A DNA stretch of 64,000 nucleotides, taken from positions 294,156 through 358,155 of the forward strand of contig CAVPSB010000019.1 of NCBI GenBank assembly GCA_963708025.1. Direction: 5' to 3'. The position numbers and the translations under genes are program-made. This document shows positions 730 through 56,256 of the stretch, piece by piece. The notes beneath the pieces were generated by a model. The model was not told the origin of the DNA, made no database searches, and saw nothing but the letters and a program-made list of their open reading frames with translations. Each line of letters opens with the position of its first letter. Positions within the stretch are counted from its first letter, which is position 1. The DNA is from an uncultured Candidatus Rokubacteria bacterium. Lineage in GTDB: Bacteria > Methylomirabilota > Methylomirabilia > Rokubacteriales > DASRDR01.

Positions 730-777
730 GTTGGTCCATGTGATCATCGCTCTCGTAGTGTGGGAGTGAGAGCGAAC

Positions 778-936
778 ATGCGACCGGACGTCACGATCGT
801 CCTGCCCGTCCACAACGGAATGCCGTATCTGCTCGAGGCTCTACAGTCCATTCTTCAACAGACCGCTTCGTTGAAGCCGGCTCTGCGCTCGGGGTGGTGC
901 GACCGCCATCTGGTAGGTGGGACGTGCAAGGCTTGA
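778..936 (+). pseudogene. N-terminal fragment of a GT2 glycosyltransferase
   Basis: Manual translation MRPDVTIVLPVHNGMPYLLEALQSILQQT... is a typical GT2 start; similarity is lost after about 29 aa and it stops at 936. Confidence 0.7.
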
Positions 937-944
937 GTCGATGG

Positions 945-2207: not shown

Positions 2208-3490
2208 TAGAAGTGCCCGCGACCCGGCTCGACGAGTTCCTGCACGGACTCGGAGAGTACGCCGTCTTGAAGAACCAGGAGGTCTGGCGGCATTTCGAGA
2301 GCGGTGGCGATCTCGACCTCCTGGTCGAGGACCTGGAGGCCGCGGAGAGGCGTCTGCTGCGGCATCTCGGCATGCCGACCCGGCGACTGGTGAGGTCGTA
2401 CGTGTCGAACTATCACTATCCATGGGGGCAGATCGATCTGCTCGCCCAGTTCGAGTGGCATGGTGCCGTGTTCCTGAGGAAGGAGAACGTGTTCGCTGGG
2501 CTCGGGACTTCGGTGATGGGCTTCTCGGCGCCCCGGCCGGCTCACGAGGCGGTGATCTGCTGGCTGACGAGCCTGCTGTGGGGCGGGTTCTTCAAGGAGC
2601 GGTATCGCGAGAAGATCCTGGCCGCCTGCGGGAGCGACGCGGCGGCCTTGAAGGAGGCGCTGGTCCAGGCGGCCGGCCCCGTCTGTGGCGGGCGGCTGTT
2701 CGACGCGGTCCAATCGGGCCAGCCGGAGCTGACGGTGACAGCGGTCCAGTCGATTCGGCGATCCGTGTGGTGGCGAGCGTTCCGGCTGGATCTTCGTGGC
2801 ACTGTGTCCCGGTGGGTCGCCTTCTGGCTGACCGAGATGCGCCTGCGGATGGTCCGGCAAGTGCCCTGGATCTGCATACTCGGGCCGGACGGTAGCGGCA
2901 AGTCGACCGTCATCGAGCATCTGGCGAGGCGATTGACTCGTCGCCGCGAGGTGTGTGGCGTGGACCTGTATCACTGGAGACCGGAGGTCGTGAGGCCGAC
3001 CGGCGGCGAGCCGGTCACGAATCCTCATGCGTCGCCTCCCCATTCCCGTCTGAAGTCGCTGCTCAAGCTCGCCTTCCTCGCTTGCGACTGGTCGCTGTGG
3101 TACTGGATGCGCCTGGTGCACCGCCAGGCCAAGGGCTATCTTTCCGTGTTCGACCGGGGCTATGCGGACATCCTGGTCGATCCGCACCGGTATCGCTACG
3201 GTGGGCCTCTCTGGCTGGCGAGGCTCGTGGGATTTTGCCTGCCGGCGCCGGACACAACGATCGTGCTTGATGCCAACTCGGAGGTGTTGCGATCGCGAAA
3301 GCAGGAGGTCGCACCGGAGGAGTGTGCTCGCCAGCGGCAGGCATATCTCGACCTAGCGAAACACACTCCGAGCTCTCACGTTGTGGACGCGTCGCAGCCC
3401 ATCGAAGCGGTCGTGGACGAAGTCGAGCGCATTGTTCGCGCCGGAATGGCGTCGGTCGGGCTCCGAGGCCTCGAGACGAGCGTGAGCTGA
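2201..3490 (+). CDS. Nucleotidyltransferase-like domain fused to thymidylate-kinase-like P-loop domain
   Basis: N-terminal GDLDLLV (Pol-beta-fold NTase GDxD motif); C-terminal GPDGSGKST Walker A, FDRGY and lid RSRKQE. Start codon uncertain. Confidence 0.7.
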   Translation: MLIEVPATRLDEFLHGLGEYAVLKNQEVWRHFESGGDLDLLVEDLEAAERRLLRHLGMPTRRLVRSYVSNYHYPWGQIDLLAQFEWHGAVFLRKENVFAGLGTSVMGFSAPRPAHEAVICWLTSLLWGGFFKERYREKILAACGSDAAALKEALVQAAGPVCGGRLFDAVQSGQPELTVTAVQSIRRSVWWRAFRLDLRGTVSRWVAFWLTEMRLRMVRQVPWICILGPDGSGKSTVIEHLARRLTRRREVCGVDLYHWRPEVVRPTGGEPVTNPHASPPHSRLKSLLKLAFLACDWSLWYWMRLVHRQAKGYLSVFDRGYADILVDPHRYRYGGPLWLARLVGFCLPAPDTTIVLDANSEVLRSRKQEVAPEECARQRQAYLDLAKHTPSSHVVDASQPIEAVVDEVERIVRAGMASVGLRGLETSVS

Positions 3491-39710: not shown

Positions 39711-39765
39711 TCACCGGGCGCCGAATCCTTGACCGGCGCGGACTTGCGTGCTCTCATACCCGGGT

Positions 39766-41763
39766 ATGCGGCTCGACCAGATCCCCTTCCGCGACACCTT
39801 CTGGAACGTTCCGCCGTGGGCCCAGTTCGTCCTCTACGCGCTCTCGGTCGTGGCCATCGGGGTCTTCGCCCTCGGCCTCTGGCAGCGGGTGACCCTCTGG
39901 CGGGAAGGGAAGCCGGAGAGCCGGTGGGACCGGGTCCCGGAGCGCATCGGCCTGGTCGTGCGCCACGCGCTGCTCCAGGGCCGCACGCTGACCCAGCGCT
40001 ACCCGGGGGTGATGCATGCCCTGATGTTCTGGGGCTTCTGCGTCCTGTTCCTGGGGACGGTGCTGGCGACGATCGACTACGACCTCCTGTGGGCGCCGTT
40101 CGGCGTGAAGCTTCTCAAGGGCCCGTTCTACCTCGTCTACGAGCTGAGCCTCGACGCCTTCGGCCTCTTCTTCGTCCTCGGGCTCGCCATCGCGCTCTTC
40201 CGGCGCTTCGTCCAGCGCCCGAAGCGCATCGACCCGACGCCGCACTTCGCCTTCGTCCTCGGCCTGCTCCTCGTGATCAACGTGACCGGCTTCGTCCTGG
40301 AGGCCTGCCGGCTGGCCGTGGTGGAGCCCTGGTGGGGGCGGTGGTCGCCGGTCGGCTGGGCGCTGGGGCGAGGGTTCCTCGCGCTCGGGCTGAGCGAGCC
40401 GGCCCTCCGCGGGCTCCACCTGGGCACCTGGCTCTTCCACTTCGCCGTCTCGTTCGCGTTCATCGCGATCATCCCGTACACGTACTTCATCCACCTGATC
40501 ACGACGCCGCTCAACATCTTCTTCTCGCGCCTGCGGCCCCAGGGGGAGCTACTCCCCATCCTGAACATCGAGGAGGCGGAGTCCCTCGGCGTGTCGAAGA
40601 TGGAGGAGTTCTCCTGGAAGCGGCGGCTCGACTTCGACGCCTGCACCATGTGCGGGCGCTGCCAGGCCGTCTGCCCGGCGCACCTGGCCGGGACGTCGCT
40701 CAACCCGAAGCAGATCATCCTGAAGCTGCGCGCGCTCATGCATTCTCCGGATGGGGCCAACGGGAAGGCGATCCACGGCGAGACGATCACGCCCGAGGAG
40801 CTGTGGGCCTGCACGACCTGCAACGCGTGCGTGGAGGCCTGCCCGGCCTTCATCGAGATCGTGGACACGATCGTGGACCTCCGCCGCTACCTGTCGCTCT
40901 CCGAGGGGGCGCTCCCGGGCACGGCGGGAACCAGCCTCCAGAACATGCAGCGGGCGGGGAACCCGTGGGGGCTCGCCGCCGCCGACCGGCTCGCCTGGGC
41001 CGAGGGGCTCGACGTCCCGCGCCTCCAGGAGGGCCAGGAGGTCGAGTACCTCTACTGGGTGGGCTGCTCGGCGTCCTACGACCGGCGCAACCAGGCGATC
41101 GCGCGGGCGGTGGTCAAGATCCTCAAGGCGGCCGGCGTCTCCTTCGCGGTGATGCCGGAGGAGAAGTGCAACGGCGACGCCGCCCGGCGGCTCGGCGAGG
41201 AGTACGCCTACCAGACGCTGGCCACCGAGAACGTCGGGAACCTCCAGCGCTACCGCTTCCGGAAGGTCATCACGGCCTGCCCCCACTGCTTCAACACGAT
41301 CGGGAACGAGTACCGGCAGTTCGGCGGCGAGTTCGAGGTGCGGCACCACTCGGTGGTCATCGCCGAGCTGGTGCGGGCCGGCCGGGTCCGGCTCACCCGC
41401 CCGCGCGAGGAGCTGCTCACCTTCCACGACTCCTGCTACCTCGGCCGCTACAACGGGATCTTCGAGGCGCCGCGGGAGACCCTGCGCGCCATCCCCGGCC
41501 TCCAGCTCGTGGAGATGCCGCGGAGCCGGAACAAGGGGCTCTGCTGCGGCGGGGGCGGCGGCCACATGTGGATGGAGGTGCGGGGCGAGCGGCGGATCAA
41601 CGAGATCCGGGTCGAGGAGGCGCTGACCACCCGCGCGAGGACCGTGGGGACCGCCTGCCCGTTCTGCATGGCCATGGTGGACCTCGGCCGGAAGGTCAAG
41701 GGTGTGGAGGAGACGCTCCAGGTGAAGGACATCGCCGAATTGGTCGCGGAGGCGCTCGAATGA
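39766..41763 (+). CDS. FadF/HdrD-like membrane Fe-S oxidoreductase
   Basis: N-terminal TM (NarI-like) region, CTMCGRCQAVCP and CTTCNACVEACP 4Fe-4S motifs, two CCG domains (WVGC, HDSCY, CCGGGGG, ACPFC). Confidence 0.9.
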   Translation: MRLDQIPFRDTFWNVPPWAQFVLYALSVVAIGVFALGLWQRVTLWREGKPESRWDRVPERIGLVVRHALLQGRTLTQRYPGVMHALMFWGFCVLFLGTVLATIDYDLLWAPFGVKLLKGPFYLVYELSLDAFGLFFVLGLAIALFRRFVQRPKRIDPTPHFAFVLGLLLVINVTGFVLEACRLAVVEPWWGRWSPVGWALGRGFLALGLSEPALRGLHLGTWLFHFAVSFAFIAIIPYTYFIHLITTPLNIFFSRLRPQGELLPILNIEEAESLGVSKMEEFSWKRRLDFDACTMCGRCQAVCPAHLAGTSLNPKQIILKLRALMHSPDGANGKAIHGETITPEELWACTTCNACVEACPAFIEIVDTIVDLRRYLSLSEGALPGTAGTSLQNMQRAGNPWGLAAADRLAWAEGLDVPRLQEGQEVEYLYWVGCSASYDRRNQAIARAVVKILKAAGVSFAVMPEEKCNGDAARRLGEEYAYQTLATENVGNLQRYRFRKVITACPHCFNTIGNEYRQFGGEFEVRHHSVVIAELVRAGRVRLTRPREELLTFHDSCYLGRYNGIFEAPRETLRAIPGLQLVEMPRSRNKGLCCGGGGGHMWMEVRGERRINEIRVEEALTTRARTVGTACPFCMAMVDLGRKVKGVEETLQVKDIAELVAEALE

Positions 41764-42662
41764 CCGTCCCGGGCCGATACCCGTCGCGCCGGGTCGTCCT
41801 CGGTCGTCGGCGGGCCTCAACGTATGCGGCATACGCCTCGGCCCGCCTCCTCCCTGCGTCCTACCGGCGCTCGGGTCTCGCCCCGGGACGGCTTCACCGC
41901 TTGGTCACGCTCACTCTTGTCTGGGCGCTGGGGCTGGCGCTGGCCGGGCCGGCCGCCGCTCAGCTCGGGGTCAACGGCGCCAAGGCCTACGACATGGCCC
42001 ACGCGGCCGACGACGCCGCCCGGGTCGCGCAGGAGGAGGGTCTGGAGGTCCTGAGGCAGCTCCAGGACCTGAGAGCCGGGAGCCGCGACGCCGACGCGCT
42101 CAAGCTGCTGCAGGAGCAGGGTGACGCCGCCGCCGAGGCCCTCGGCGGATTCCGGCGACAGACCCAGGCGAGCACGGACGAGACGATGGCGCTCCTGGCC
42201 GAGCTGATGCGCCTCGGGAGCAGCGTCGAGGCGAGCCGCCGGCAGCAGGCGGAGCAGCGCGCACTGCTCAGCGCCTACGAGGCCGCGGTCATGGCCGCCC
42301 GGGCGCGGAGCCAAGCCGAGCGGCTCCGCGCGCTCCACGCCGAGGGGCGCGCGCTGCTCGCCGGGGGCAGTCCCGGCGCGCCGCCGGCCACTGCCCGGGC
42401 GCCCCGCGCGAAGCCCGAGGCGCCGGCGACCGGCGCCGGTCCCAACGACGTCCTGGTCCCGAACGTCGTGGGCGCCCGTCTGGACTCCGCCACCCGCGAG
42501 CTCGAGACGGCCGGGCTCCGGCTCGGGCCGACGACGGGACCGCGCGATGGCTTCGTCGTGAAGCAGACCCCGGCGCCTGGCGCCGTGGCGCCGCGCCAGG
42601 CCGGGGTGAGCCTCACCCTGTCGGCCACCGCGGCGAGCGTGACGGACCTCCCGCCCCGGTGA
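41760..42662 (+). CDS. Exported coiled-coil protein with C-terminal PASTA domain (true start probably near 41901)
   Basis: Signal-like LVWALGLALAGPAAAQ; VPNVVG..LETAGL..VVKQTPAPG..VSLTLS. Confidence 0.7.
   Translation: MTVPGRYPSRRVVLGRRRASTYAAYASARLLPASYRRSGLAPGRLHRLVTLTLVWALGLALAGPAAAQLGVNGAKAYDMAHAADDAARVAQEEGLEVLRQLQDLRAGSRDADALKLLQEQGDAAAEALGGFRRQTQASTDETMALLAELMRLGSSVEASRRQQAEQRALLSAYEAAVMAARARSQAERLRALHAEGRALLAGGSPGAPPATARAPRAKPEAPATGAGPNDVLVPNVVGARLDSATRELETAGLRLGPTTGPRDGFVVKQTPAPGAVAPRQAGVSLTLSATAASVTDLPPR
41764..41891. repeat. 128-bp nested palindromic element with 10-bp terminal inverted repeats (MITE/REP-like)
   Basis: CCGTCCCGGG / CCCGGGACGG ends; inner GGCGGGCC / GGCCCGCC and CGTATG-CGG-CATACG stems. 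Confidence 0.55.
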
Positions 42663-44816: not shown

Positions 44817-45005
44817 GGAAGCGCCTGAACGAATGAATCTCCGTACCCTCCCTTCCCGCCGGTGGGTGGGGGAGGGGGGTTGGGGGGAGGGTGGGAGGTT
44901 CCGCGGACCGCGCTCTGCGAGCCGTTGAAGGAATAGACCCTCCTCAGCCCCCCCCCCCCCCGGTGGGTGGGGGAGGGGGGTTGGGGGGAGGGTGGGAGGT
45001 TTCGA

Positions 45006-46403
45006 ATGCTCGGCATCACCGGGTTCGGCGTCCACATCCCGCGCTATCGGCTCTCCGGCCAGACCCTGGCGGCCGTCTGGGGCGGGAGCGGCGGCGGCGA
45101 GCGCGCCGTGGCCAACCACGACGAGGACAGCCTCACGATGGCGGTCGAGGCGTCGCTGGCGGCCCTCGCGGGCCGGAGCGGCCAGGAGCTCGGCGGCGTC
45201 CTGCTGGCCACGACGACCCCGCCCTACGCCGAGAAGTCCTCGGCCGCCATCCTGGCGGCCGTCGTCGATGCCGGCCGCGACCTGTTCGTGACCGACCTGG
45301 GCGGGAGCCTGCGCGCCGGCACGACCGGCCTCCGCCTCGCGCTCGACGCCGTGCGAGCCGGCTCGGCGCGCGAGGTGCTGGTCGCCGCCGCCGACATCCG
45401 GCCGGCCCCGCCGGGTGGCGACCTCGAGGCGCTCCTCGGCGACGGCGCGGCGGCGGTGGTCGTCGGCGAGGGCGACGTGCTCGCGCGCTTCGAGGGCGCG
45501 TACTCGCTCACCCACGAGTTCTCGGACGTCTGGCGCAAGGCCGACGCCCGGTTCCCGGAGCAGGGGGATCCCCCCTTCGTCCGCGCCTACGGCTACGAGA
45601 AGCTGATCCCGGAGGCGGTGAGCGGGCTGCTGACCCGGCTCGGGCTCAAGCCGCAGGACGTCGCCCGCGTCGCCTGCTACGCGCCGGACGCCCGGCTGGC
45701 CCCCGGGATCCTCCGCGCGCTGAAGTTCCCGGACACCGCGGTGCTCCGCCTGCCGCTCCTGGCGTCGGTCGGCAACACCGGAACGGCCTCGCCGCTCCTG
45801 GCCCTCGCCGCCGCGCTGGAGGAGGCGCAGGCCGGCGACCGCGTCCTCGTCGTCGGCTACGGCTCCGGCGCCGATGCGCTCCTCTTCCAGGCCACCGAGC
45901 GGATCGAGCGGTGGGACCGCAGCCACGGCGTCACCGCGCAGCTCCGGGCCGGCCGTCCCCTCGTCCACTACGGCAAGCTCCTCCAGTTCCGCCGGCTCGT
46001 GGAGTCCGAGGTGTTGCGGGCGTTCACCAGCCTTCCGGTCATGCAGCGCGAGGAGCGGCAGGATCTTCGCCTCTACGGCCAGAAGTGCGCCGCGTGCGGC
46101 GCCGTCCAGTACCCCCGGCGACACCTCTGCTGGCAGTGCTCCGGCAAGGACCTCGGCGAGTACCGGCTCGGGCGCCGCGGGCGCGTCTTCACGTTCACCC
46201 GCGACCACCTGGTGCCCTCGCCCGACCCGCCGACGGTGATGGTCGCCGCCGACCTCGAGGGCGGCGGCCGGTTCTACACGCAGATGACCGACACCGATCC
46301 CGCCGCCGTGGAGATCGGGACCCCGGTCGAGCTGACCTTCCGCCGCTTCCACGAGGGCGGCGAGCTGGTCAACTACTTCTGGAAGTTTCGCCCGGTCCTC
46401 TGA
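45006..46403 (+). CDS. HMG-CoA synthase-like domain fused to DUF35 Zn-ribbon/OB-fold
   Basis: DEDSLTMAVEA, GDGAAA, VGNTG, GYGSGAD; C-terminal CAAC..CWQC, VELTFRR, YFWK. Confidence 0.85.
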   Translation: MLGITGFGVHIPRYRLSGQTLAAVWGGSGGGERAVANHDEDSLTMAVEASLAALAGRSGQELGGVLLATTTPPYAEKSSAAILAAVVDAGRDLFVTDLGGSLRAGTTGLRLALDAVRAGSAREVLVAAADIRPAPPGGDLEALLGDGAAAVVVGEGDVLARFEGAYSLTHEFSDVWRKADARFPEQGDPPFVRAYGYEKLIPEAVSGLLTRLGLKPQDVARVACYAPDARLAPGILRALKFPDTAVLRLPLLASVGNTGTASPLLALAAALEEAQAGDRVLVVGYGSGADALLFQATERIERWDRSHGVTAQLRAGRPLVHYGKLLQFRRLVESEVLRAFTSLPVMQREERQDLRLYGQKCAACGAVQYPRRHLCWQCSGKDLGEYRLGRRGRVFTFTRDHLVPSPDPPTVMVAADLEGGGRFYTQMTDTDPAAVEIGTPVELTFRRFHEGGELVNYFWKFRPVL

Positions 46404-46584
46404 GCGGGTTGAAAGGCCCAATCTTTCAAGAGGTTATCTTTTTGACCTCTGCCGCCGGTTGCGCCTGGGTTGCGTCCGGTTCCCCCTGGGGCATCCACCG
46501 GGCGTAGACCCGGAAGAGCACGGCGGCGCTCCGCCAGCCCCCCGCGGCTGGACGGAGTTCCCGAAGCCAGGGCCCTGTGCGCTT

Positions 46585-46728
46585 TCCCCCGTAGTCCAGT
46601 CGGATAGAGCAAGGGTTTCCTAAGAAAGAATCCCGCGCGGAGCCCCGCACGACGATTCAGTAATTCCGCGAGGTTGGGCGTCCTGCAGCACCGCCTCAGG
46701 GCGGCCTTGATGTCGCCTCTCGGGGGCA
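46585..46728 (+). pseudogene. Degenerate, interrupted tRNA-Arg(CCT)
   Basis: 5' half TCCCCCG-TA-GTCCAGTCGGATAGAGC-A-AGGGT-TTCCTAA; after about 80 nt, GCCTTGATGTC and the 3' acceptor CCTCT-CGGGGGC-A. D-stem mismatched, T-loop missing. Confidence 0.6.
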
Positions 46729-47408
46729 AACCGTCAAGGTATCGTCAAGGTGGACCGCCGCCGTCCCGCGAGTCCATCGCGGCCCTCACCGGTAACTCCG
46801 TGCCTCGGTGCCTCGCGTTCCAGCGAGGCCCGGACATGGGCCTGCGCCGGCGTCTGGGGTGACTGGGATCGGGATCGCGGCGCACAAGCACCTCTCGGCC
46901 GGACCGCGGGAAGCCCGCCGTCGCCCCGGCCAGACTGCGCATCGCCGGAGTGTAGGCACCTCAGGCAAATCGGCCACGGCCGTGGGGGCCGGCCGGGGCT
47001 CTCTCATCTGGTTCTTCCTGACCTTCGGCCATCGGCGCCTGTCTGATTCTCTACCGGCGTCGCGAGGGGCGCCGGGCGAGCTACATCCGCGGTGAGCGTT
47101 TCCGCGAGGCTGTGTGGGAACGCAGGAGGTGCTAGATGATAGACGAGCGGCGCCTCACCCGCTACTGCCGGCGCAGCCGGGGGTCAGAGGCTCGGCGGCG
47201 CGCAGTCAGCGCGCCGGCGGGAGCGTGAACCAGTCCGCCTGCAACGCGACGCGCGAAAAAGCCTCTTCATCTCGGGCGGGAGGTCGGCCTCGCGCTAGAG
47301 GCGCAAGCCGGCGAAGCGCGAATCCGCGACGTCGTTCTCAGCGGAGGCTTGCCCGACTTCCGCCGCGCCGCCGAATGCCTGGTCTTTGAAGCCTGGCGCT
47401 AAGCCGCC

Positions 47409-47675
47409 TCAGACGCGGGCAAGCTCCATGTCCTCAACCATCTGCCAGAAGCACGTCCAGACGCTGTTGTCGGTTTCGTGCACGCAGCGGCAGAAATCGG
47501 CGCAGCGGACCGACCCCTCGAGGGTGGTGGTGATCTCGCCGCAGGCGAGCAAGCACTCCGAGAGTGCCTTGGGATTCCTCCGCCTCGATGCTTCGATGCC
47601 GCTGGCATCGGCGACCGCAAACGCCTGACCAATATGTATACGGGTAACTCCACCCGCTTGCCTAGGGAGGATCAT
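47409..47675 (-). CDS. Putative RiPP-like precursor: PatE-like leader + GIEAS site + 6-Cys core
   Basis: MILPRQAGGVTR resembles the cyanobactin precursor N-terminus ILPQQGQPVIR; GIEAS resembles PatA site GLEAS/GVEPS; SD AAAGGA; 33 nt after the protease stop. Confidence 0.75.
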   Translation of the reverse strand: MILPRQAGGVTRIHIGQAFAVADASGIEASRRRNPKALSECLLACGEITTTLEGSVRCADFCRCVHETDNSVWTCFWQMVEDMELARV

Positions 47676-47708
47676 GATCGATTCCTTTCTGTGGTTCTTC
47701 GTAGGTCA

Positions 47709-49556
47709 TCAGCGCACATGCCAGGAGCGCACAGGTCCCACCATCACCGGAACCACATCGCTCACGTCGACGGTGAAGCGGTAAACCTTTCGAGACTGCT
47801 CAAACATCCGGTGCGGATTGAAGAACGTGAGCTTCACATCCCAGCAATCCGACTCCGGGCGGCAGATTGGACTCCGCTCGACCTCGATCTTGTCCAGGTC
47901 GAATTCGTCGCGAACCGCGGATGCTAAGACCTCCGCGGCTTGGAACGCATTGGTCGCCGCGTAATTGATGGCCCGATCCTGCGGCGTCAGCCCGAGGTTT
48001 CGAAGTTCGTCGTAGATTCTCCGCAGGAAGTTTGCGACAGCGTCAGAAGAATCGCCAGCCTGTTGGTCCGCCGCACCCGCGAGCGCTGCTGTGGTCCAGC
48101 TATACATGCCGCGCATCGCAGGCCAGATCACCGGAACAGATTGGCCCGTCGACAATCGAGCAGAGCCTGAGACCAGTCCCGGCACCGACACGCGCTCCAC
48201 TTCACCCCGGCTTTGTTCGGCTAAGAATTGGCGCAGCCGTTCGTAAGTCTCTCTTGCAAACGAGCCCTGCGCTCGGATGGCGTAGATGGTCGTTGCGTCC
48301 AGGTTCAACGTCCAGACCAGCGCCGCGGCATCCCACGGATTCCTGTCGAGGTACGCAAGCAATTGCGCAGGATCGTAGGGGTTCGCCGGCGGATCCATGT
48401 TCTGGCGGATCGAGTCGCGCCGCGCTTCCGTGCCGAAGTCGTAGCCGATTTGGCCAAGCGCGAACACCAGCTGCGGGGGCGCTTCAGACGATCCGCACTG
48501 GCAACCCGACGGGCCTGTACCCTGCCGCGGCTCGGCCGCCAGGGACGGAACTTCGTCGCCCGCACTTCGCGGCGGGACTGGCGCCTGAGACTCGGGTGTT
48601 CGAGGAGAATCGGACATAGAGCATCCTTTCAGCACCTGCATCATTGCACCGGGAACATTGAGGCGTCCGGACAAGAGACGTTCGCAATCGTCAACGGGTT
48701 CGCGCTCGCAACCGATTGCCGTTTGCAGCAACGCGTTTCGTACCGACGACGGACTCGGCCGCCCCCCGCGCTGAGATTGCAGACTCAGCAGCAGCGCGGC
48801 CACGCCCGAAACGAGCGGCGTCGCATAGCTTGTACCCGAACGAACGCAAACGCCTCCTCCCGCTCGTGCGCCCGGGATGTTCTCACCCGGTGCCAGGATT
48901 CCATGCTTGCGATACTCGCTGGCCCAGTTGCTCAAACGCATCGGCGCTTGGGACGCATCCATCGCTCCGACGACCAGAACCGATGGATGCGTGGCCGGGA
49001 TGTGAAGGCAATCGCATCCGTCGTTCCCCGCCGCCGCCACGATGAGCACGTCGCGAGCGGCGGCTTTTTCGATCGCGCGCTCCAGCAATGGATGTGCAGT
49101 AGCGCTCTGCGACAACTGCCCGCCGCTGATGTTCACAACGTGAGCGCCGATCGAAATCGCCTGTTCGATCGCTTGCGCCAGTGTCACTTGGGAACATGGG
49201 GCGATGTCACCGTCGGGCGTGTCGCGGAACACCGGGACGAGGACGCCGCGGCACTTCGGCGCAATCCCCTTCAATGGACCCTCATGCTGGCCGAAGATGA
49301 CGCTGGCGACATGCGTGCCGTGCTCGCAAGCCGCACTGGTCACTGTTTCCGTTTCGGCGCCGGAACGCAGAACCGTCAGGTTCGCCCCCGCCAAGCAAGG
49401 ATGTGCCACGTGTACTGGCCCGTCCAGAATCGCGACGAGGATGTCCGGCGAGCCAAGCGTCTCCGCCCAGAGCGGTTCGATACCTGCGAGCGCCGCGACG
49501 GCGCCGTCGAGCAGCGGGATGTGAACCCGGCATGTATCGTGCGCGACTGTCATCAT
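47709..49556 (-). CDS. Cyanobactin maturation protease PatA-like (S8 subtilase + PatA/PatG C-terminal domain)
   Basis: VAILDGPV, HGTHVASVIFGQ, AAAGNDGC, SGTSYATPLVSG; C-terminal LVFALGQIGYDFGTEARRDS, RALNY-like RAINYAATNAFQ, CRPESDCWDVKL, YRFTVDVSDVVPV. Confidence 0.92.
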   Translation of the reverse strand: MMTVAHDTCRVHIPLLDGAVAALAGIEPLWAETLGSPDILVAILDGPVHVAHPCLAGANLTVLRSGAETETVTSAACEHGTHVASVIFGQHEGPLKGIAPKCRGVLVPVFRDTPDGDIAPCSQVTLAQAIEQAISIGAHVVNISGGQLSQSATAHPLLERAIEKAAARDVLIVAAAGNDGCDCLHIPATHPSVLVVGAMDASQAPMRLSNWASEYRKHGILAPGENIPGARAGGGVCVRSGTSYATPLVSGVAALLLSLQSQRGGRPSPSSVRNALLQTAIGCEREPVDDCERLLSGRLNVPGAMMQVLKGCSMSDSPRTPESQAPVPPRSAGDEVPSLAAEPRQGTGPSGCQCGSSEAPPQLVFALGQIGYDFGTEARRDSIRQNMDPPANPYDPAQLLAYLDRNPWDAAALVWTLNLDATTIYAIRAQGSFARETYERLRQFLAEQSRGEVERVSVPGLVSGSARLSTGQSVPVIWPAMRGMYSWTTAALAGAADQQAGDSSDAVANFLRRIYDELRNLGLTPQDRAINYAATNAFQAAEVLASAVRDEFDLDKIEVERSPICRPESDCWDVKLTFFNPHRMFEQSRKVYRFTVDVSDVVPVMVGPVRSWHVR

Positions 49557-49621
49557 CCGTTCGTCAATCCGCTGATGTCGCCGCCACTGCTGCCGGATAA
49601 GGTTACGATCCGAGCAGGGTC

Positions 49622-50122
49622 TTGTCAACCGGAGATCGGTTCACGTTCCTCGCCCCGCGCGCCCGCTGGCGATCGACCATCGTCCCGAAGCCGGCCGCTG
49701 ACGGCGCGCCCGCCGACGCCGGTGGCCGATCCCCGAGACGGTGGACGTGGGCCCGGCTCCTCCGCCGGGTGTTCGCCATCGAGATCTTGGTGTGTGAGCG
49801 CTGCGGGGGCCCGCGCCGTATCCTGGGCGCTGTGACTGAACCCCACGCCGTGCGCCGGCTCCTCGCGGCGCTCGGGCTGGCGCCCCAGCCGCCGCCGGGG
49901 CGGCCCGTCCCCGCCGCCTGACCCCCGCGCGTGATCGCGCCCCTCAGGCCCACCTTCCGACCTTCCTGGGCCCACACGGCCGGGGATGCCGAGACCCCCG
50001 GGCTGCCCGCCTTCGTCATGCAGGACCCGGCCGTCGTGCGGACCCTCCTCGCCCACGACGGACGCGCACGCGCCACGGCGGCGCCGGGCCCCGCCCCACC
50101 CGCCCCGGCCGCGATCGGGTAG
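49622..50122 (+). mobile_element. IS91/ISCR-like transposase C-terminal remnants (two fragments)
   Basis: WARLLRRVFAIEILVCERCGGPRRILGAVTEP..VRRLLAALGL, then QDPAVVRTLLAH...PGPAPPAP. Confidence 0.75.
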
Positions 50123-50386
50123 CCTCGCCGCGATCGGGTAGCCTCGCCGCTCGGCCAGACTCGCGCGGGGTCCCGCTCGCCGGGGCCCGGCCCCGCCCCA
50201 CCCGCCTGCTCCTTGACCGTGCGCCCGCGCCAGCGCAGGATGGCGCAGGGTCAGCCCGCGCTCGCGAGGTTGCCGATTGCCCTCCGCTTGCCCTCGCCCC
50301 CCGAGGCGAACCCACCACGGCGGCCGGGCCGGCTTCGGGGGGGAGACCGGACCTGGCCGGCCGCTTCGCGGAGATGGCGTTAGTCG
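50072..50386 (+). repeat. 3' non-coding end of an IS91/ISCR-like element, copy 1
   Basis: About 300 bp closely similar to 52915-53218; includes a 19-bp tandem duplication CCGCGATCGGGTAGCCTCG. Confidence 0.8.
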
Positions 50387-50705
50387 GATAAGATGAACTC
50401 GGCATTTCAGATTCCGTGTCCACCTGGAGGGGCCGGCTGATCTACCGGCGCAGGCGTCTGACGACCTATGCACGTCTCATTGAGCGGTGGAGAAGGCATG
50501 ACGGCGACATGGCTGACGAGGTGCGTTTCAGCACTCCTCAATCACATGTTCACGACCGTCCAGTTGCGAACGGGGCGGCGACCTCCTAGGGGCCTCAGGA
50601 GAACGGCTTGAGACGGAGGCGGGGAAGGCGTAAGGTGGCGCCGTCCCTCTTCAAGGCGTGGTGAAGTAAGCAAGCCTTATAGTAGACCACGGAACGAACG
50701 AAATC

Positions 50706-52169
50706 ATGAATCCCACACACAGATTCAGCCTCCTGGCTGCCGCCCTCCTTGTCCTGCTGGGCGGCTGCGCGACCCGCCCGATCAATCCGCCGATCGCCCA
50801 GGTCAACACGATAGCGGGATACAGTTTCGAGGCGCGCCACGGAAATGCCAAAGACCAGGACAACCTGGTCATCCTCGCCTTCTCGGGCGGCGGCACGCGT
50901 GCTGCCGCCTTTTCCTACGGGGTATTGGAGTTCCTTCGAAAGACCGAGGTTGTCGGACCGAAGGGCAACAAAGTCCGCTTGCTCGACGCGGTCAACCTCA
51001 TTACCGGCGTGTCAGGTGGCAGTTTCACCGCACTCGCCTATGGCCTCTATGGCGACAAGCTGTTTGCCGACTATGAACAGCGCTTTCTGAAACGCGATGT
51101 ACAGGGCGAGATGCTCGCGCGCCTGTTCAGCCCGAAATACTGGGGCCATCTCTGGTCGTCGGGCTGGGGCCGTTCCGAATTGGCGGCCCAGTTGTACGAC
51201 GAAATCCTGTTCAACGGCGCGACGTTTGACGAGCTCAACCGCGGCGATGGCCCAGTGATCGCGGTATCGGCGACGGATATTTCGACTGGCTCCCGCTTCG
51301 TCTTTACGCAGCGCGTGTTCGACATCATCTGCTCGGACCTCAACGCGGTACCACTGTCCCGCGCCGCGGCGGCCTCGTCGGCCGTACCGGTCGTGCTCTC
51401 GTCCGTCACGATCAACAACTATGGCGGCACCTGCAACAGAGTCGTGCCGGCCTGGGCCGAACCGTTTGTCGAATCCGACAACCCACCGAGACCTGCGGCA
51501 CGGGCCGTCCGCTCGCTCAAGGCCGAGGAAGCTTTCGGCGACAGCGTCCATCGCCCGTATCTCCATCTCGTTGACGGCGGCGTGTCGGACAATGTAGGCA
51601 TGCGTTCTGTGCTCGATGCACTGCAGGTGTTCCAGGCATTGCATGAAGTCGGCGCGCCAACGCCACTCGACAGTGTGCGCAGAATCATTGTGTTCATCGT
51701 CAATTCGCTCTCTTCGCCGCCGACCCACTGGGACGAGTCGGAGAACCCTCCCGGCACCGTGGCCATTCTGCTCAAATCGGCAGGTACCCCGATTGACGCC
51801 TTTTCCTACGAGGCGGTCGAGTTACTGAAAGACACGGCTCAGCAGTGGCAGACGGCGCGCCTGATCCGGGACTCGGCGGCAATGGCGGCCAACAAAGATC
51901 CTGCGGTTGCGGCGGCATTGCGCGTCCCGAACGCCGAGATTTACGCCATCGACGTGTCGTTCTCGGCGCTGAAGGACACGGCTGAACGCGAGTACCTGAA
52001 TCAACTGCCCACGTCGTTCGTGCTTCCCGCCGAGGCGGTCGATCGCCTGCGCGCCGCAGCGGCAATGCTCATCATGGATTCACCGGAATTCAAGCGTCTG
52101 CTGAAAGATGTCGGCGCCAACCTGGTTACGGAACCACCGGCTGCCGAAAGCCCAGGGGCGGCGCAATAG
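50706..52169 (+). CDS. Patatin-like phospholipase lipoprotein
   Basis: Lipobox LGGC; FSGGGTRAAA, GVSGG nucleophile elbow, LVDGGV. Confidence 0.9.
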   Translation: MNPTHRFSLLAAALLVLLGGCATRPINPPIAQVNTIAGYSFEARHGNAKDQDNLVILAFSGGGTRAAAFSYGVLEFLRKTEVVGPKGNKVRLLDAVNLITGVSGGSFTALAYGLYGDKLFADYEQRFLKRDVQGEMLARLFSPKYWGHLWSSGWGRSELAAQLYDEILFNGATFDELNRGDGPVIAVSATDISTGSRFVFTQRVFDIICSDLNAVPLSRAAAASSAVPVVLSSVTINNYGGTCNRVVPAWAEPFVESDNPPRPAARAVRSLKAEEAFGDSVHRPYLHLVDGGVSDNVGMRSVLDALQVFQALHEVGAPTPLDSVRRIIVFIVNSLSSPPTHWDESENPPGTVAILLKSAGTPIDAFSYEAVELLKDTAQQWQTARLIRDSAAMAANKDPAVAAALRVPNAEIYAIDVSFSALKDTAEREYLNQLPTSFVLPAEAVDRLRAAAAMLIMDSPEFKRLLKDVGANLVTEPPAAESPGAAQ

Positions 52170-52349
52170 TGCGGGTGGTGACCACGGCCTGAGATTGACC
52201 TTGCGGCCGCCGCGAGTGTCCACCCCGGCCAGACGAGCAACCCGTTGCGGCGGTACGGGCCTCTCGAGACTCGGAGGCTCCTCAATCTCTCGCCGGTCAA
52301 CGATGAGGATACGGGGGCAAGTGGCAGCTTGGTCATCGCCAAAGGCACC

Positions 52350-52700
52350 CCGCAGGACCTCACTCTCCGAACAGCACCCCACGCCTGCGACGCTCGAGCT
52401 CCTGGGCCATCTCGCGCATCTGCGCCTCGTGCTCGCGCTGCGCACGGGGAGTCGCGGCTGGCCGGCCTCGCCGCGGCGGACTCGGGAGACCTGTTCCCCC
52501 TGGGAGATCAGTCGGCGGAGGTCAGTTGGCTATGGCCCACCCGACCCCCTCAGCGAGACCTCGCCGCTTCTGGCCGGGATCGTCAGGGCGTCCGTCCAGG
52601 GCCGCGTCGCCCTCGGCCCGCGCGCCCGTGCCCGCGTCCGGCGCGACGGTGGCGAGCCGGATCTCGGTCACGTGACCGCCCGGGGCCCTCGCCAGGCCGC
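52350..52700 (+). mobile_element. Internal remnant of an IS91-like transposase
   Basis: DPLSETSPLLAGIVRASVQGRVALGPRARARVRR segment recalled as typical of these transposases. Confidence 0.5.
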
Positions 52701-52914
52701 CGCCCGTCGGAATCCGCGTCAGTAAAGGTCAAAGTCGGGATTCCACGGTTCGCAAGCCCGGTTACCAGCAAGTACATTCGGGTTGCGAGCACCCGACGAT
52801 GAACTACGAGAACGAAACCCTGCGCTGGCCGACCAATCTGGACCGCGCCGCGATCGTTGCGCGCCTCATAGAGGTGCGCAAGCAGGCCGCGGCGGCCGTG
52901 CAGGCCCTCCTTGC

Positions 52915-53218
52915 CCACGGCGGAGGGGCGCGCGCCCCGGCGGCGCCTGGCCCCGCCCCGGCCGCGATCGGGTAGCCTCGCCGCTCGGCCAGACCCGCGC
53001 GGGGTCCCGCTCGCCGGGGCCCGGCCCCGCCCCCTCCGCCTGCTCCTTGACCGTGCGCCCCGCGCCGGCGCAGGATGACGCGGGGTCAGCCGGCGCTCGC
53101 GAGGTCGCCGCTCGCCCTCGCCCCTCGAGGCGGGCCGCCACGGCGGCCAGGGCAGGCTTCGGGGGGAGGCCGGACCTGGCCGGCCGCTTCGCGGAGGTGG
53201 CGTTAATCGTTCCTATGC
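52915..53218 (+). mobile_element. 3' end of an IS91/ISCR-like element, copy 2, with oriIS-like terminus
   Basis: Ends GCGTTAATCGTTCCTATGC, similar to ISCR oriIS GCGTTTGAACTTCCTATAC. Confidence 0.7.
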
Positions 53219-53220
53219 GC

Positions 53221-53524
53221 TCGGTCCGCGTGCGAGGCGCTGGAGGAGTTGGGGGCATGGTGTCCCGACGTGCCGGTGTGGGACATCGAGATGCCCAAAG
53301 AGGATGGGTAGTCGCTGATCCGGAAGGTGCGCGCGCGGGACAAGACGCAGGACGGGAAGACTCCCGCCGTCGCGCTGACCGCGCACGGGCCGCCGGCAGG
53401 ATGGGTGCGCTCGCTGTCTGCCGGTTACAGCATGCACGTGCCGAAGGCGGTGGACCCCGGTGAAGTTCACGACCTCCAACTGGGACGGGAGATACGGCCC
53501 GGGACGCAGGAGCGCGTGACGTGA
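53221..53524 (+). pseudogene. Receiver (REC) domain remnant
   Basis: PDVPVWDIEMPKEDG*SLIRKVR..TPAVALTA..LSAGYSMHVPKAVDP with an in-frame TAG. Confidence 0.7.
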
Positions 53525-56256
53525 GGCGCGACGATCAGGCTCTGCTGGCCGCCATCGTTGACTCGTCCGACGACGCCATCGTCAGCAAGACCGTGGATGG
53601 CATCGTGACCTCGTGGAACTTCGCGGCGGAGCGGATCTTCGGCTACACGGCGGCCGAGATGATCGGCCGCTCCATCACCACGATCTTCCCGCCCGACCGA
53701 GTCGGCGAAGAAGCCGAGTTCCTGCGTCGCCTCGCCCGAGGCGAGCGCATCGACCACTACGAGACCGTGCGGATCCGCAAGGATGGCCGCGCGGTTGACA
53801 TCTCGGTGACGCTGTCGCCGCTCCGTGACGCGACCGGAGTGATCGCCGGAATCTCGAAGATCGCGCGCGACATCACCGAGCGCAAGCGCGCGGCAGCGCT
53901 GCTGCATGAGCAGGCGGAGTCGTGGCGCGTGACGCTGTCGAGCATCGGCGACGCTGTCATCGCGACCGATGCCAAGGGGCGGGTCACGTTCATGAACGCC
54001 GTGGCCGAGACGCTGACCGGCTGGACGGCGGAGGACGCTCGGTCGCGGCCACTCGTCGATTTCTTCCGCATCGTCAACGAGCAGACGCGACTCCCGGTCG
54101 AGAGCCCCGTCGATCGGGCCCTCCGGGATGGAGTGATCATCGGACTCGCTAACCACACGGTGCTGCTGACCCGCGATGGGGCCGAACGGCCAATCGATGA
54201 CAGCGCCGCACCGATGCACGACGCGAGCGGCCAGATCGCTGGCGTAGTCCTCGTCTTTCGTGACGTCACCGAGCGCCGGCGAGCCGAGGCGGACTTGCAT
54301 GAGCGCGAGGCGCGCTTCCGGATCATGGCGGACGCCGCGCCAGTGATGATCTGGATGTCCGGGACCGACGCGGAGCGCGAGTTCTTCAACAAGCCGTGGC
54401 TCGAGTTCACCGGCCGGCGAATGGAAGAGGAGCTCGGCACGGGCTGGGTCGAGGGCGTCCACCCCGAGGATCTGCAGCAGTGCTTGGACGTGTACCTCGC
54501 CGCCTTCAACGACCGCCGGGCCTTCCGCATGGAGTACCGCCTCCGGCGACACGACGGCGAGTATCGCTGGATCCTGGATACCGGTGTGCCGCGCTTCGAC
54601 GCTGACGGGCAGTTCGCGGGGTACATCGGCTCGTGCCTCGATATCGAGGATCGGCGCCGGGCCGAAGACGAGGTGGCCCAGCAACGCGAGTGGCTCCGGG
54701 TCACCCTAGGGAGCATCGGTGACGCGGTCATCGCCACCGATCTCCGGGCCCGTGTGACCTTCATGAACCCGGTCGCGGAGGCGCTGACCGGCTGGAGCGC
54801 GGACGAGGCGATGAGCCGGCCGCTCGCCGACGTCTTCGACATCGTGAACGAGCAGACACGGCGGCGTGCGGAAAGCCCGGTGACGCGCGTGCTGCAGGAG
54901 GGCCTGGTCGTCGGGCTCGCCAACTCGACCGTGCTCATTCGGAAGAATGGCGCCGACCTACCGATCGATGACCGGGCGGCGCCGATCCGGGACCGTCGGG
55001 GCCACATCATCGGCGCGGTGCTCGTTTTCCATGACATCGTGGAGCGGCGGCGCGCCGAGGCCGAGCGGGCCCAGCTGTTCGCAGCGGAACGGGCGGCGCG
55101 AGCGGAAGCCGAGCGGGCCAACCGGGCCAAGGATGAATTCCTAGCGACCCTGTCGCATGAGCTACGCGCTCCGCTCCAGGCGATTCTCGGCTGGACGCGG
55201 CTGCTCCGAGGCGCCTCACTGGACGATGAGAAGCGGCTCCAAGCCGTGGAGGTGATCGAGCGGAACTCACAGCTCCAGGTGCAGCTCATCGAGGATCTGC
55301 TCGACGTCTCTCGGATCGCGACAGGCAAACTCCATCTGGACGTTCACCGGATCGACCTCGCCGCCGTGGTCGACTCCGCGCTCGACCTCGTGCGCGGCAG
55401 TGCGGAGGCGAAACGTCTCCGTCTCGACACCACGATCGACCCCGCCGCCCGCACGTTCATCGGGGGTGCCGCCCGCCTTCCGCAGGTGGTCTGGAACATG
55501 CTCTCGAATGCCATCCGGTTCACGCCCGAGGGCGGACGGATCACCGTGACCGTCACCCGAACGGAGAACCGCGTGCTCCTTACCGTGAGCGACACGGGTC
55601 ACGGCATCAGTCCCGATCTCCTGCCCCACATCTTCGAGCGCTTCCGACAGGGGCACCTCGCGGGCCGCGTCGCGCGTGGGGGCCTCGGGCTCGGGCTCGC
55701 GATCGCGCGCCAGATCGTCGAGCTGCACCGCGGAACGATCGAGGCGCACAGCGACGGCGAGGGCCGGGGCGCCACCTTCGTCGTGAGCCTGCCCCTGACC
55801 GGCCCCGCCCCCACCGTCGAGCCGGCCGTGGCCGACACCGCGCCGCGGCCGGGGTTTCCGTCGCTGACGGGCATCCGCGTCTTGCTCGTCGAGGACGACA
55901 CCGACGGCCGCGCCCTGATGGCGGAGGTCCTGCGGCAATGTGGCAGCGAGGTGGTGGAGGCCGGTTCCACGGGCGAGGCGCTCGCGGTGTTGGACGGGAG
56001 CCGGGTCGACGTGCTCGTGAGCGATATCGGGCTGCCCGACCAGGATGGCTATTACCTCATGCGGACGATCCGCGCGCGCCCGGCAGACCGCGGCGGCAGC
56101 GTGCCGGCGCTCGCCGTCACCGGGTTCGCCAGGGTGGAGGACCGCCGGCGCGCGCTGCTCGCCGGGTTTCAGACGCATGTCTCGAAGCCCGTGGAGCCGC
56201 TCGAGCTGGCCGTGGTCGTCGCCAATCTCCTCGGTCGCGGTCGCGAGAGCCGCTGA
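53521..56256 (+). CDS. Hybrid sensor histidine kinase (4 PAS + HisKA + HATPase + REC)
   Basis: PAS repeats, LSHELRAPL, NMLSNAIRFT, DTGHGI, GLGLGL, LLVEDD..SDIGLP..KPV. Confidence 0.93.
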   Translation: MRRDDQALLAAIVDSSDDAIVSKTVDGIVTSWNFAAERIFGYTAAEMIGRSITTIFPPDRVGEEAEFLRRLARGERIDHYETVRIRKDGRAVDISVTLSPLRDATGVIAGISKIARDITERKRAAALLHEQAESWRVTLSSIGDAVIATDAKGRVTFMNAVAETLTGWTAEDARSRPLVDFFRIVNEQTRLPVESPVDRALRDGVIIGLANHTVLLTRDGAERPIDDSAAPMHDASGQIAGVVLVFRDVTERRRAEADLHEREARFRIMADAAPVMIWMSGTDAEREFFNKPWLEFTGRRMEEELGTGWVEGVHPEDLQQCLDVYLAAFNDRRAFRMEYRLRRHDGEYRWILDTGVPRFDADGQFAGYIGSCLDIEDRRRAEDEVAQQREWLRVTLGSIGDAVIATDLRARVTFMNPVAEALTGWSADEAMSRPLADVFDIVNEQTRRRAESPVTRVLQEGLVVGLANSTVLIRKNGADLPIDDRAAPIRDRRGHIIGAVLVFHDIVERRRAEAERAQLFAAERAARAEAERANRAKDEFLATLSHELRAPLQAILGWTRLLRGASLDDEKRLQAVEVIERNSQLQVQLIEDLLDVSRIATGKLHLDVHRIDLAAVVDSALDLVRGSAEAKRLRLDTTIDPAARTFIGGAARLPQVVWNMLSNAIRFTPEGGRITVTVTRTENRVLLTVSDTGHGISPDLLPHIFERFRQGHLAGRVARGGLGLGLAIARQIVELHRGTIEAHSDGEGRGATFVVSLPLTGPAPTVEPAVADTAPRPGFPSLTGIRVLLVEDDTDGRALMAEVLRQCGSEVVEAGSTGEALAVLDGSRVDVLVSDIGLPDQDGYYLMRTIRARPADRGGSVPALAVTGFARVEDRRRALLAGFQTHVSKPVEPLELAVVVANLLGRGRESR

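Follow-up and report, generated by a model that had tools for sequence, protein, structure and literature searches.

A predicted two-gene system of a PatA-type protease and a cysteine-rich leader peptide in a Rokubacteria genome

The window analysed here, a 64 000-nucleotide stretch of the genome of an uncultured Candidatus Rokubacteria bacterium (assembly GCA_963708025.1, contig CAVPSB010000019.1), carries on its minus strand a gene for a protease of the cyanobactin-maturation family, followed after a short spacer by an open reading frame (ORF) for an 88-residue protein with six cysteines. Cyanobactins are a model family of RiPPs, peptides made by ribosomes and modified after translation. The pairing of a PatA-type protease with a leader precursor that carries a long cysteine-rich cargo, rather than the short core of a macrocycle, is supported by sequence comparison, in agreement with the original prediction for this locus: the pair recurs in 65 of 71 assessable related loci, and a second protease of the family lies nearby in only three of 78. 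We consider it probable, at about 0.62, that the protease removes a 30-residue leader from the small protein and thereby frees a linear 58-residue helical peptide stabilized by its cysteines. An extracellular antimicrobial or signalling role for this peptide is proposed with less confidence than the cleavage itself. The features of the pair, in window coordinates, are

47709-49556, minus strand: A-type (PatA-like) cyanobactin-family maturation protease gene, 615 residues counted from the ATG
48717-49445, minus strand: S8 catalytic domain of the protease, residues 38-280 (Pfam Peptidase_S8, E = 3.7e-31)
48180-48467, minus strand: PatG_D domain of the protease, residues 364-459 (PF18047, E = 2e-12)
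47721-48065, minus strand: PatG_C domain of the protease, residues 498-612 (PF18065, E = 1.1e-42)
47676-47708, minus strand: intergenic spacer of 33 nucleotides, carrying the Shine-Dalgarno sequence AAAGGA
47409-47675, minus strand: putative precursor ORF of 88 residues, with its stop codon at 47409-47411
47586-47675, minus strand: precursor leader, residues 1-30, matched by the leader profile and containing an L-P-x-Q-x-x-G-V-x-R motif
47586-47600, minus strand: G-I-E-A-S motif of the leader, residues 26-30, which fits the PatA consensus G(L/V)E(A/P)S
47412-47585, minus strand: predicted core, residues 31-88 (58 residues), with six cysteines and three predicted helices

The protease and the small gene downstream of it

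The protease scores 677.1 bits against the NCBIfam hidden Markov model (HMM) for PatA/PatG cyanobactin maturation proteases (TIGR03895, curated cut-off 421.05; 677.7 bits in a genome-wide search), which was the check proposed for it at the outset. The catalytic residues Asp45, His79 and Ser243 and the oxyanion-hole residue Asn178 are invariant in an alignment of 24 sequences (the window protease and 23 relatives), and the Pfam domains, TIGR03895 and the invariant triad all agree on an S8 protease with intact D/H/S motifs and a PatA/PatG C-terminal domain. An alternative TTG start would lengthen the ORF to 49628. The solved structures closest to the catalytic domain are of A-type enzymes (4h6w at 307 bits, with 4h6v and 3zxx at about 295; range 294-307), whereas the PatG macrocyclase domains 4aks, 4akt and 4h6x score lower, at 159-162 bits. 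By these bit scores the window protease is of the A-type (leader protease) rather than the G-type (macrocyclase). The C-terminal half of the protease matches the structure of the PatG domain of unknown function (DUF; 4uvq, E = 1.6e-63).

The two genes are co-directional, with the protease stop codon at 47709-47711 and the AAAGGA sequence at 47683-47688, 7 nucleotides ahead of the precursor ATG (47673-47675); the placement of the small ORF 33 nucleotides past the protease was thereby confirmed. The leader start motif, the GIEAS sequence and the cysteines at positions 41, 45, 58, 62, 64 and 75 (CX3C/CX3CXC spacing) are exactly as first described, and inspection of all 88 residues bore out the reported lack of a LAELSEEAL-type heterocyclase site and an AYDG-type follower. 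Cleavage by PatA-type enzymes after G(L/V)E(A/P)S is given in excerpts of PMC10885120. Neither a Pfam name nor an NCBIfam match at E <= 0.1 (including TIGR03678, TIGR04446, NF042906 and TIGR04220) was obtained for the small ORF. Neither protein has an N-terminal signal peptide as judged by eye, and a reading of the leader as a signal peptide was rejected by the same means, its hydrophobic stretch being weak and most leaders of the family being polar.

The 88-residue ORF is a genuine gene, as judged by its homologues, its invariant cysteines, its codon-position GC content and an independent occurrence of the pair. A word-based homologue search recovered only the ORF itself. A phmmer search of 1.84 billion proteins gave ten matches at E <= 0.001, namely the ORF, eight true homologues (81-111 residues, 31-65% identity, E from 2e-24 to 8e-4) and a 705-residue repeat protein (P0009) that was dropped as spurious. 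Met1, all six cysteines, Asn70 and Asp82 are invariant in the alignment of the homologues, and a G-(I/V)-x-(A/L)-S boundary is kept in five of the six sequences with a PatA-type leader (the query included). The independent occurrence is a metagenome contig of 1,181 nucleotides (L082), the one locus found by a metagenome scan with a narrow alignment, on which a PatA-type C-terminus closely like that of the window protease is followed, after a 22-nucleotide gap, by a precursor of 49% identity. The GC content at the first, second and third codon positions of the precursor frame (0.57/0.52/0.76) matches that of the protease (0.67/0.52/0.71), and the overlapping alternative frames lack such a pattern.

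The locus was also found in public sequencing runs, with contigs from four RNA libraries (two studies) mapping to it. Three contigs, from libraries X10, X12 and X13, fall within the protease and the intergenic spacer at 100% identity (X13 at 47680-47877), and two contigs from library X20, with three differences each, lie at 47395-47530 and 47615-47763. The latter spans the protease-precursor junction with more than 31 nucleotides on either side, and its two substitutions alter residues 7 and 8 of the leader, both of them at variable positions (codons read by hand). These contigs are a weak hint of transcription, carry-over of genomic DNA into the libraries being possible.

An AlphaFold2 model from a nine-sequence alignment (mean predicted local distance difference test score, pLDDT, 66.9) has a disordered leader (pLDDT in blocks of 46-50) and a core with pLDDT 72-80 that contains helices at residues 35-48, 52-67 and 72-87. 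The two CX3C pairs, separated by 12 residues, lie on helices 1 and 2 of the model, with Cys64 on helix 2 and Cys75 on helix 3. This CX3C-X12-CX3C arrangement on two predicted antiparallel helices is reminiscent of the CX3C-Xn-CX3C helical hairpins of the plant alpha-hairpinins (2lqx, BWI-2c; 2nb2, nigellin), from which the window core differs in its third helix and third cysteine pair (Cys64 and Cys75). A Foldseek search against the PDB returned nothing at E <= 0.001; the alpha-hairpinins appeared only as non-significant rows (E = 6.4-9.3 over 32-37 aligned residues), and there is no sequence relationship to them. The wide VIA-align search gave a best Z of 5.8 with generic helical rows only, and the ESM Atlas contained no usable match for the core. 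The helical reading originally proposed is roughly right, with three helices predicted; the likeness to alpha-hairpinins comes down to the cysteine pattern and the non-significant Foldseek rows. Complex predictions from the protease and precursor alignments taken as a pair scored 0.11 and 0.06 against a mark of 0.32 and count neither way.

Recurrence of the pair and diversity of the leader peptides

Related loci were fetched with the window protease from one genome per GTDB species, which gave 146 stretches, of which 133 were confirmed, and 78 distinct loci (identified below by L and a number). In many of these loci, a first pass with a regular expression for the leader motif flagged small ORFs that closely follow the protease gene. 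A leader HMM was then built from 71 segments found in this way, none of them from the window, and was run over all 24,949 stop-to-stop segments that the 78 loci and the window contain. Three rounds at E < 0.01 produced 90, 100 and 103 matches in 47, 55 and 56 loci, respectively. All but two of the 103 matches lie on the protease strand (both exceptions are in L056), and those of round one lie 30-3,400 nucleotides downstream of the protease end, with L065 as the sole exception. Loci were taken as assessable if the protease C-terminus was present with at least 300 nucleotides after it (n = 71); the other seven of the 78 have contig ends or split protease matches. In 55 of these 71 loci the HMM found a leader ORF that shares the protease strand and lies no more than 2.5 kb downstream, and in 65 such an ORF was found by the HMM or a relaxed regular expression, so that the search for leader ORFs beside PatA-like genes suggested in the original prediction was positive. 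Among the six negative loci (L037, L044, L054, L059, L063 and L066), L059 and L066 hold canonical cyanobactin precursors (E-peptides) instead and L044 shows a variant leader by eye. A second PatA/G-like match within 6 kb is restricted to L038, L048 and L067. Rather than an isolated 'minimal' curiosity, the pair belongs to a large family.

The 88-residue ORF is the sole leader-HMM match among the 1,242 stop-to-stop segments of the window, with E-values of 0.029, 0.057 and 0.011 over the three rounds in the full search space (about 1e-3 for the window alone). In the whole host genome (126,434 segments) it ranks second, with an E-value of 0.15; the top match, on contig C22, was rejected because it is a low-complexity frame that lacks a start codon as well as a motif.

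By their record labels, the loci belong to Acidobacteriota, Planctomycetota, Pseudomonadota, Cyanobacteriota and others, with at least eight bacterial phyla and one archaeal metagenome-assembled genome (MAG) represented. PatA-type proteases occur on MAG contigs with the record titles Nitrososphaerales (L010, an archaeon), Clostridia (L039, Bacillota), Ca. Doudnabacteria (L047, a CPR bacterium) and Solirubrobacterales (L052 and L057, Actinomycetota), in which binning errors are possible; leader ORFs are present in L010, L039, L052 and L057, and the L047 contig is too short.

The peptide family was described from 104 unique peptides, the window's included. The leader reads M-x-L-P-x-Q-x-x-(P/G)-V-x-R and is followed by 10-25 variable residues. 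A cleavage-type site follows in the strict form G[ILVM]x[AP]S in 39 of the 104 peptides and in a looser form in 40, the heuristic finding none in 25. The predicted cores are 7-99 residues long (median 33) and contain no cysteine in 11 peptides, one in 1, two in 8, three in 5, four in 11, five in 5, six in 44 (the commonest number), seven in 1, eight in 12 and ten in 6. The count is even and non-zero in 81 of the 104 peptides (81 of the 93 that contain cysteine), and part of the odd counts is due to the crude boundary rule. Leader matches are often in tandem, with up to six per locus. Several core types recur in different phyla, and this recurrence of cores behind one leader suggests that cassettes of leader and core pass from lineage to lineage. 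Fifteen sampled cysteine-rich members matched no Pfam or NCBIfam model and gave only sub-threshold touches on cyanobactin precursor and PatB N-termini.

Two core families that cross phyla behind the common leader were drawn from L005, L033, L049, L061, L064 and L075 and from L011, L019, L028, L045 and L069; one is an 8-10-cysteine type ending in C-x-D-C-(F/L/I) and the other a six-cysteine type with C-x-L-C...T-V-C. Seven of the 11 cysteine-free leader matches are PatB-like ORFs of canonical loci. Cysteine-free cores that are rich in glycine, alanine and valine and amphipathic in appearance are present in L056 (8318-8581) and L076 (8549-8719 and 8796-8954) and resemble linear membrane-active peptides. 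In the planctomycete locus L058 (8075-8632), a leader ORF of 185 residues downstream of the PatA-type protease has a sub-threshold phospholipase A2 match (PF00068, 23.8 bits, cut-off 32.1); as in this case, the leader may also carry cargo of enzyme size.

When the ORFs of 90 residues or more from the 78 loci and the window were clustered all against all, the protease was present in all 79, and three clusters were antisense shadow frames within the protease gene. Most other neighbour clusters reflect Janthinobacterium synteny. The only further family beyond genus-level synteny comprises AAA_35/GAF-type proteins near the protease in 15 loci, and it is absent from the window. Examples of AAA_35-domain neighbours, some with GAF, lie in cyanobacterial and planctomycete loci (L013 11703-13844, minus strand; L017 2333-5743; L055 8246-11935, minus strand). 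The conserved unit therefore consists of the protease and its leader-bearing peptides.

A quick IQ-TREE search with SH-aLRT (Shimodaira-Hasegawa-like approximate likelihood-ratio test) support was made on 59 protease rows, with a midpoint root for drawing only; 20 of the 78 loci lie outside the tree, their tblastn match being split or truncated. One cyanobacterial clade of eight rows (support 99) gathers the loci in which E-peptides, PatB or a second protease occur; in the 50 other loci and in the window the protease stands alone. The clade that contains the window protease (support 91; best identity 60%) carries Competibacteraceae, Granulosicoccaceae, Lacipirellulaceae, Acidobacteriota and Nitrososphaerales MAG labels, and such thorough mixing of taxa fits horizontal spread. 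The tree has no outgroup and hence carries no direction of evolution, and its MAG labels may contain binning errors. A glycine precedes the conserved valine in 8 of 17 leaders of the window clade, 4 of 7 in a planctomycete-rich clade and 2 of 86 elsewhere, where proline dominates (62 of 86). Leader variants therefore follow the protease clades as a matter of description only, in that related sequences share labels.

The host genome and the island

The host genome (8.17 Mb in 49 contigs, 99.67% complete, 8.18% contamination) has a GC content of 71.2% and gave no phycobilisome match in a search for which a Synechococcus control was positive, consistent with the non-cyanobacterial host originally assumed. 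No match to YcaO (PF02624) was found genome-wide, with positive controls. The genome contains a single locus at the TIGR03895 level and no second PatA/PatG locus, the other match being a generic S8 protease at 38 bits. The LynF/TruF/PatF prenyltransferase family (TIGR04445) is unmatched in the genome, the same search being positive in two of five canonical-clade genomes, and PatB (TIGR04220) is unmatched in a search that had no positive control. The lack of YcaO, PatG and PatF first reported for the window consequently extends to the whole genome, the oxidase reported with them lying outside these searches, and the YcaO, PatG, PatF and PatB searches revealed no full cyanobactin cluster elsewhere that would make the pair a displaced relic. 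Of 40 relatives that share the family or order of the host (one of them, G038, unpublished), none reaches the TIGR03895 cut-off.

The pair lies in a region of atypical composition. The GC content is 58-66% over 47.6-49.6 kb and 50.4-52.4 kb compared with 70-80% around, and the protease, the precursor and a patatin-like gene have a GC content at third codon positions (GC3) of 0.71-0.76, compared with 0.87-0.99 in the flanking genes. The other features of this region are

49622-49921, plus strand: C-terminal fragment of an IS91/ISCR-family transposase (NF052416, 41.6 bits, model positions 400-486 of 509)
50017-50386, no strand: direct repeat, left copy, about 370 nucleotides (families D1-D5, 82-100% identity)
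50706-52169, plus strand: patatin-like phospholipase with a lipoprotein-type N-terminus (Pfam Patatin, E = 8.7e-19; GC3 0.75)
52879-53209, no strand: direct repeat, right copy, about 370 nucleotides (families D1-D5, 82-100% identity)

The transposase fragment adjoins the 5' end of the protease gene and scores far under the full-length cut-off. The direct repeats flank the patatin-like gene on both sides, and repeat and transposase sequences also occur on other contigs, i.e. are multi-copy in the genome. The mobile region proposed originally is supported by the IS91/ISCR fragment, the repeats and the atypical GC3, but the window has neither an intact mobility gene nor a tRNA. The low GC and GC3, the insertion-sequence debris and the repeats indicate that the pair is foreign DNA inserted into a high-GC genome that is not cyanobacterial.

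The patatin-like gene is context only, as it is not a conserved neighbour in the 78 related loci. It has weak matches to phospholipase effectors of CBASS (cyclic-oligonucleotide-based antiphage signalling systems) or of defence systems (25.8 and 30.4 bits); PADLOC matched generic subtilase and phospholipase models only and made no defence-system call. Rfam found nothing in 45000-54000, no promoter-like sites were detected in 47000-50000, and terminator-like sites were at chance level (2 found, 2.0 expected). Elsewhere in the window, a 977-residue ORF at 39729-42662 (plus strand) has a PASTA domain at its end, which may be informative about the type of high-GC bacterium that forms the host.

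Proposed processing, its rivals and relation to known systems

In the mechanism that we favour, the locus would be a horizontally acquired two-gene leader-peptide system and the 88-residue product a precursor. The N-terminal L-P-x-Q-x-x-(P/G)-V-x-R motif of the disordered 30-residue leader would be recognized by the protease, a role suggested by its conservation, its occurrence in both E-peptides and PatB and the agreement of its variants with the protease clades; docking may take place on the DUF. The cytoplasmic PatA-type subtilase would cut after G-I-E-A-S (Ser30) and remove the leader, releasing a linear three-helix mini-protein of 58 residues held by its six invariant cysteines. Three disulfides formed after export would be the likeliest state of these cysteines, with metal coordination as the alternative, and the product would undergo no heterocyclization, prenylation or macrocyclization. 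Once freed, the peptide would most likely work outside the cell that makes it, either like a bacteriocin or as a signal. What the comparisons show is the identity of the two genes, the conservation of the pair and its leader over many phyla, the conservation of the core with its cysteines, and the lack of other cyanobactin genes among those searched for in the genome; that the N-terminal motif serves recognition, that the cut falls after Ser30, that disulfides form and that the peptide is exported and bioactive is inferred.

Several observations weigh against this mechanism. Cleavage is a prediction for every family member, made from a pattern match in the case of the window precursor, and the window leader scores weakly against the family HMM, at 15-17 bits. 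Three of the homologues (P0005, P0006 and P0010) share the six-cysteine core but have another N-terminus and no G-x-x-A-S site, so that the core can occur outside the PatA-type leader. Their alternative N-terminus is the conserved sequence M-N-(L/M)-P-x-F-T-A-E-x-S-L, which has no occurrence in the 78 related loci or in the host genome, and their core seems to be joined to a second leader type. Many of the related loci are from MAGs, the taxon labels of which may hold binning errors. The core is net acidic (seven basic and nine acidic residues, counted by eye) and in this is unlike typical cationic antimicrobial peptides. Beside the pairs in the 78 loci and the window there is no conserved exporter, thiol-disulfide oxidoreductase, immunity gene or modifying enzyme, and no exporter, oxidoreductase or immunity gene adjoins the window pair, although a cytoplasmic cysteine-rich peptide would have to be oxidized and released. 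According to excerpts of PMC4259220, the PatG DUF did not bind PatE in vitro. Finally, PatB proteins have the same N-terminal motif and gene slot but are not known to be substrates, so that the motif may mean something other than a leader.

This last point leads to a rival explanation that we regard as rather improbable, namely that the product of the small ORF serves the protease as an accessory protein or regulator of the PatB kind, for example one that docks on the C-terminal DUF through its N-terminal motif, and is never cleaved. PatB-family ORFs do fill the slot directly after PatA in canonical loci (L048 8257-8457, L071 7938-8153 and L073 6898-7122, with 108-124 bits against TIGR04220), and PatB-like ORFs follow PatA by eye in L053, L067 and L068. 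PatB starts with L/F-P-K-Q-x-P-P-V-K-R and is caught by the leader HMM; the start (L/F)-P-K-Q-x-P-P-V-K-R is common to PatB, the cysteine-rich peptides and the E-peptide leaders. Excerpts of PMC4663559 describe the B and C proteins as conserved, non-essential and of unidentified function. However, although the window ORF shares its slot and N-terminal motif with PatB, AcyB and McaB, the body of PatB is conserved, free of cysteine and without a visible G-x-x-(A/P)-S boundary, and TIGR04220 matches neither the window ORF nor any protein of the host genome. The cysteine-rich ORFs combine a variable core behind a conserved leader with one to several tandem paralogues and a G(V/I)x(P/A)S-type boundary site, which are hallmarks of precursors rather than of accessory proteins. 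The shared motif may be a clue to the function of PatB.

An equally improbable rival is that the peptide is processed but kept in the cytoplasm as a binder of zinc, copper or iron instead of being exported as a disulfide-bonded effector. The CX3C/CX3CXC spacing of the six invariant cysteines, the lack of a signal peptide on either protein and of a conserved exporter, and the metal-related role argued for patellamides in excerpts of PMC13266932 would be compatible with this. Against it, even cysteine counts prevail (81 of 93) although the cores differ greatly, a pattern shared with secreted peptides rich in disulfides, and the cysteine-free amphipathic-looking cargoes of L056 and L076 and the sub-threshold phospholipase A2-like cargo of L058 point to effectors rather than to metal handling. 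The least probable explanation by far, that the pair is the decayed relic of a full cyanobactin cluster and the small ORF a degenerate or chance frame, could draw on the foreign character of the island beside insertion-sequence debris and on the absence of a PatA-level match from all 40 relatives, but was rejected because both genes are intact, the core has eight homologues with invariant cysteines, the same two-gene layout without PatG and without any other common gene family recurs in most related loci, and YcaO, PatG, the PatF family and PatB are unmatched in a 99.67%-complete genome.

The favoured system of leader, protease and linear cysteine-rich product has both similarities to and differences from canonical cyanobactin systems (the pat cluster and its kin). 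Both contain an A-type S8 protease with the C-terminal DUF, and the (L/T/S)-P-x-x-x-Q-P-V-x-R-type motif and G(L/V)E(A/P)S-type site of canonical E-peptides are both of types present in the window precursor. In contrast to the canonical systems, the window system lacks the PatG macrocyclase, the heterocyclase, the prenyltransferase and the recognition sequences RSI and RSIII; its core has 58 residues with six cysteines instead of 6-20 residues, and its host is not cyanobacterial. Canonical E-peptides, seen in L059, L066, L071 and L073, match TIGR03678 at 39-44 bits, whereas the window precursor is unmatched by TIGR03678, TIGR04446 and NF042906. In excerpts of PMC4663559, cyanobactin clusters are described as known only from cyanobacteria as of 2015 and active clusters as always encoding both A and G proteases together with E, B and C. 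The window protease belongs to the PatA family by sequence, but the whole system fails the definition of a cyanobactin cluster.

The linear cyanobactins (aeruginosamides, viridisamide and muscoride) are linear products from cyanobactin-type leaders according to excerpts of PMC4663559 and PMC10885120, and the window product would likewise be linear rather than macrocyclic. They differ in having 3-5 residues that are heterocyclized, prenylated and methylated, compared with an unmodified mini-protein of 58 residues, and their clusters keep a YcaO enzyme and more tailoring enzymes, unlike the window system.

Leader-guided bacteriocins, such as those with double-glycine leaders and C39 peptidase-ABC exporters or of the Nif11/NHLP type, combine a conserved leader with variable, often tandem cores and a dedicated leader protease. 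The window-type protease differs from these in being an S8 subtilase with the cyanobactin DUF and no fused or adjacent transporter. The system thus resembles a stripped-down version of the leader-protease step of linear cyanobactins, with a logic like that of leader-guided bacteriocins. No description of PatA-only loci with cysteine-rich precursors was found in the literature searched, although the main genome surveys or subscription papers may mention such loci.

A tentative scenario, to which we give clearly less than even odds, is that the PatA-type protease and the L-P-x-Q-x-x-P-V-x-R leader constitute an old, horizontally mobile, general-purpose module for pro-peptide activation, the diverse cargoes of which include several families of disulfide-rich mini-proteins, cysteine-free amphipathic peptides and a phospholipase A2-like domain. 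The canonical cyanobactin pathways would then be a cyanobacterial offshoot that added PatG, PatD and PatF, with PatB as a retained cargo or partner. Release of the leader peptides by the protease, if real, would provide a scenario for the origin of cyanobactin pathways and would suggest a role, open to testing, for the conserved N-terminal region of cyanobactin leaders, possibly also for PatB and the DUF, while one portable enzyme and its leader would be usable for making such peptides.

The comparisons described here point to a system that is larger and simpler than the cyanobactins, in which an A-type protease would suffice and the carriers of which are bacteria from soil, sediment and water. 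It encodes many small cysteine-rich peptide families that are unnamed in Pfam and NCBIfam, to which the window member would add a new conserved family with six cysteines and a modelled three-helix fold. If the protease does release these peptides, they would amount to a sizeable and so far unexploited reservoir of bacterial disulfide-rich peptides, which might act as bacteriocins, signals or inhibitors.

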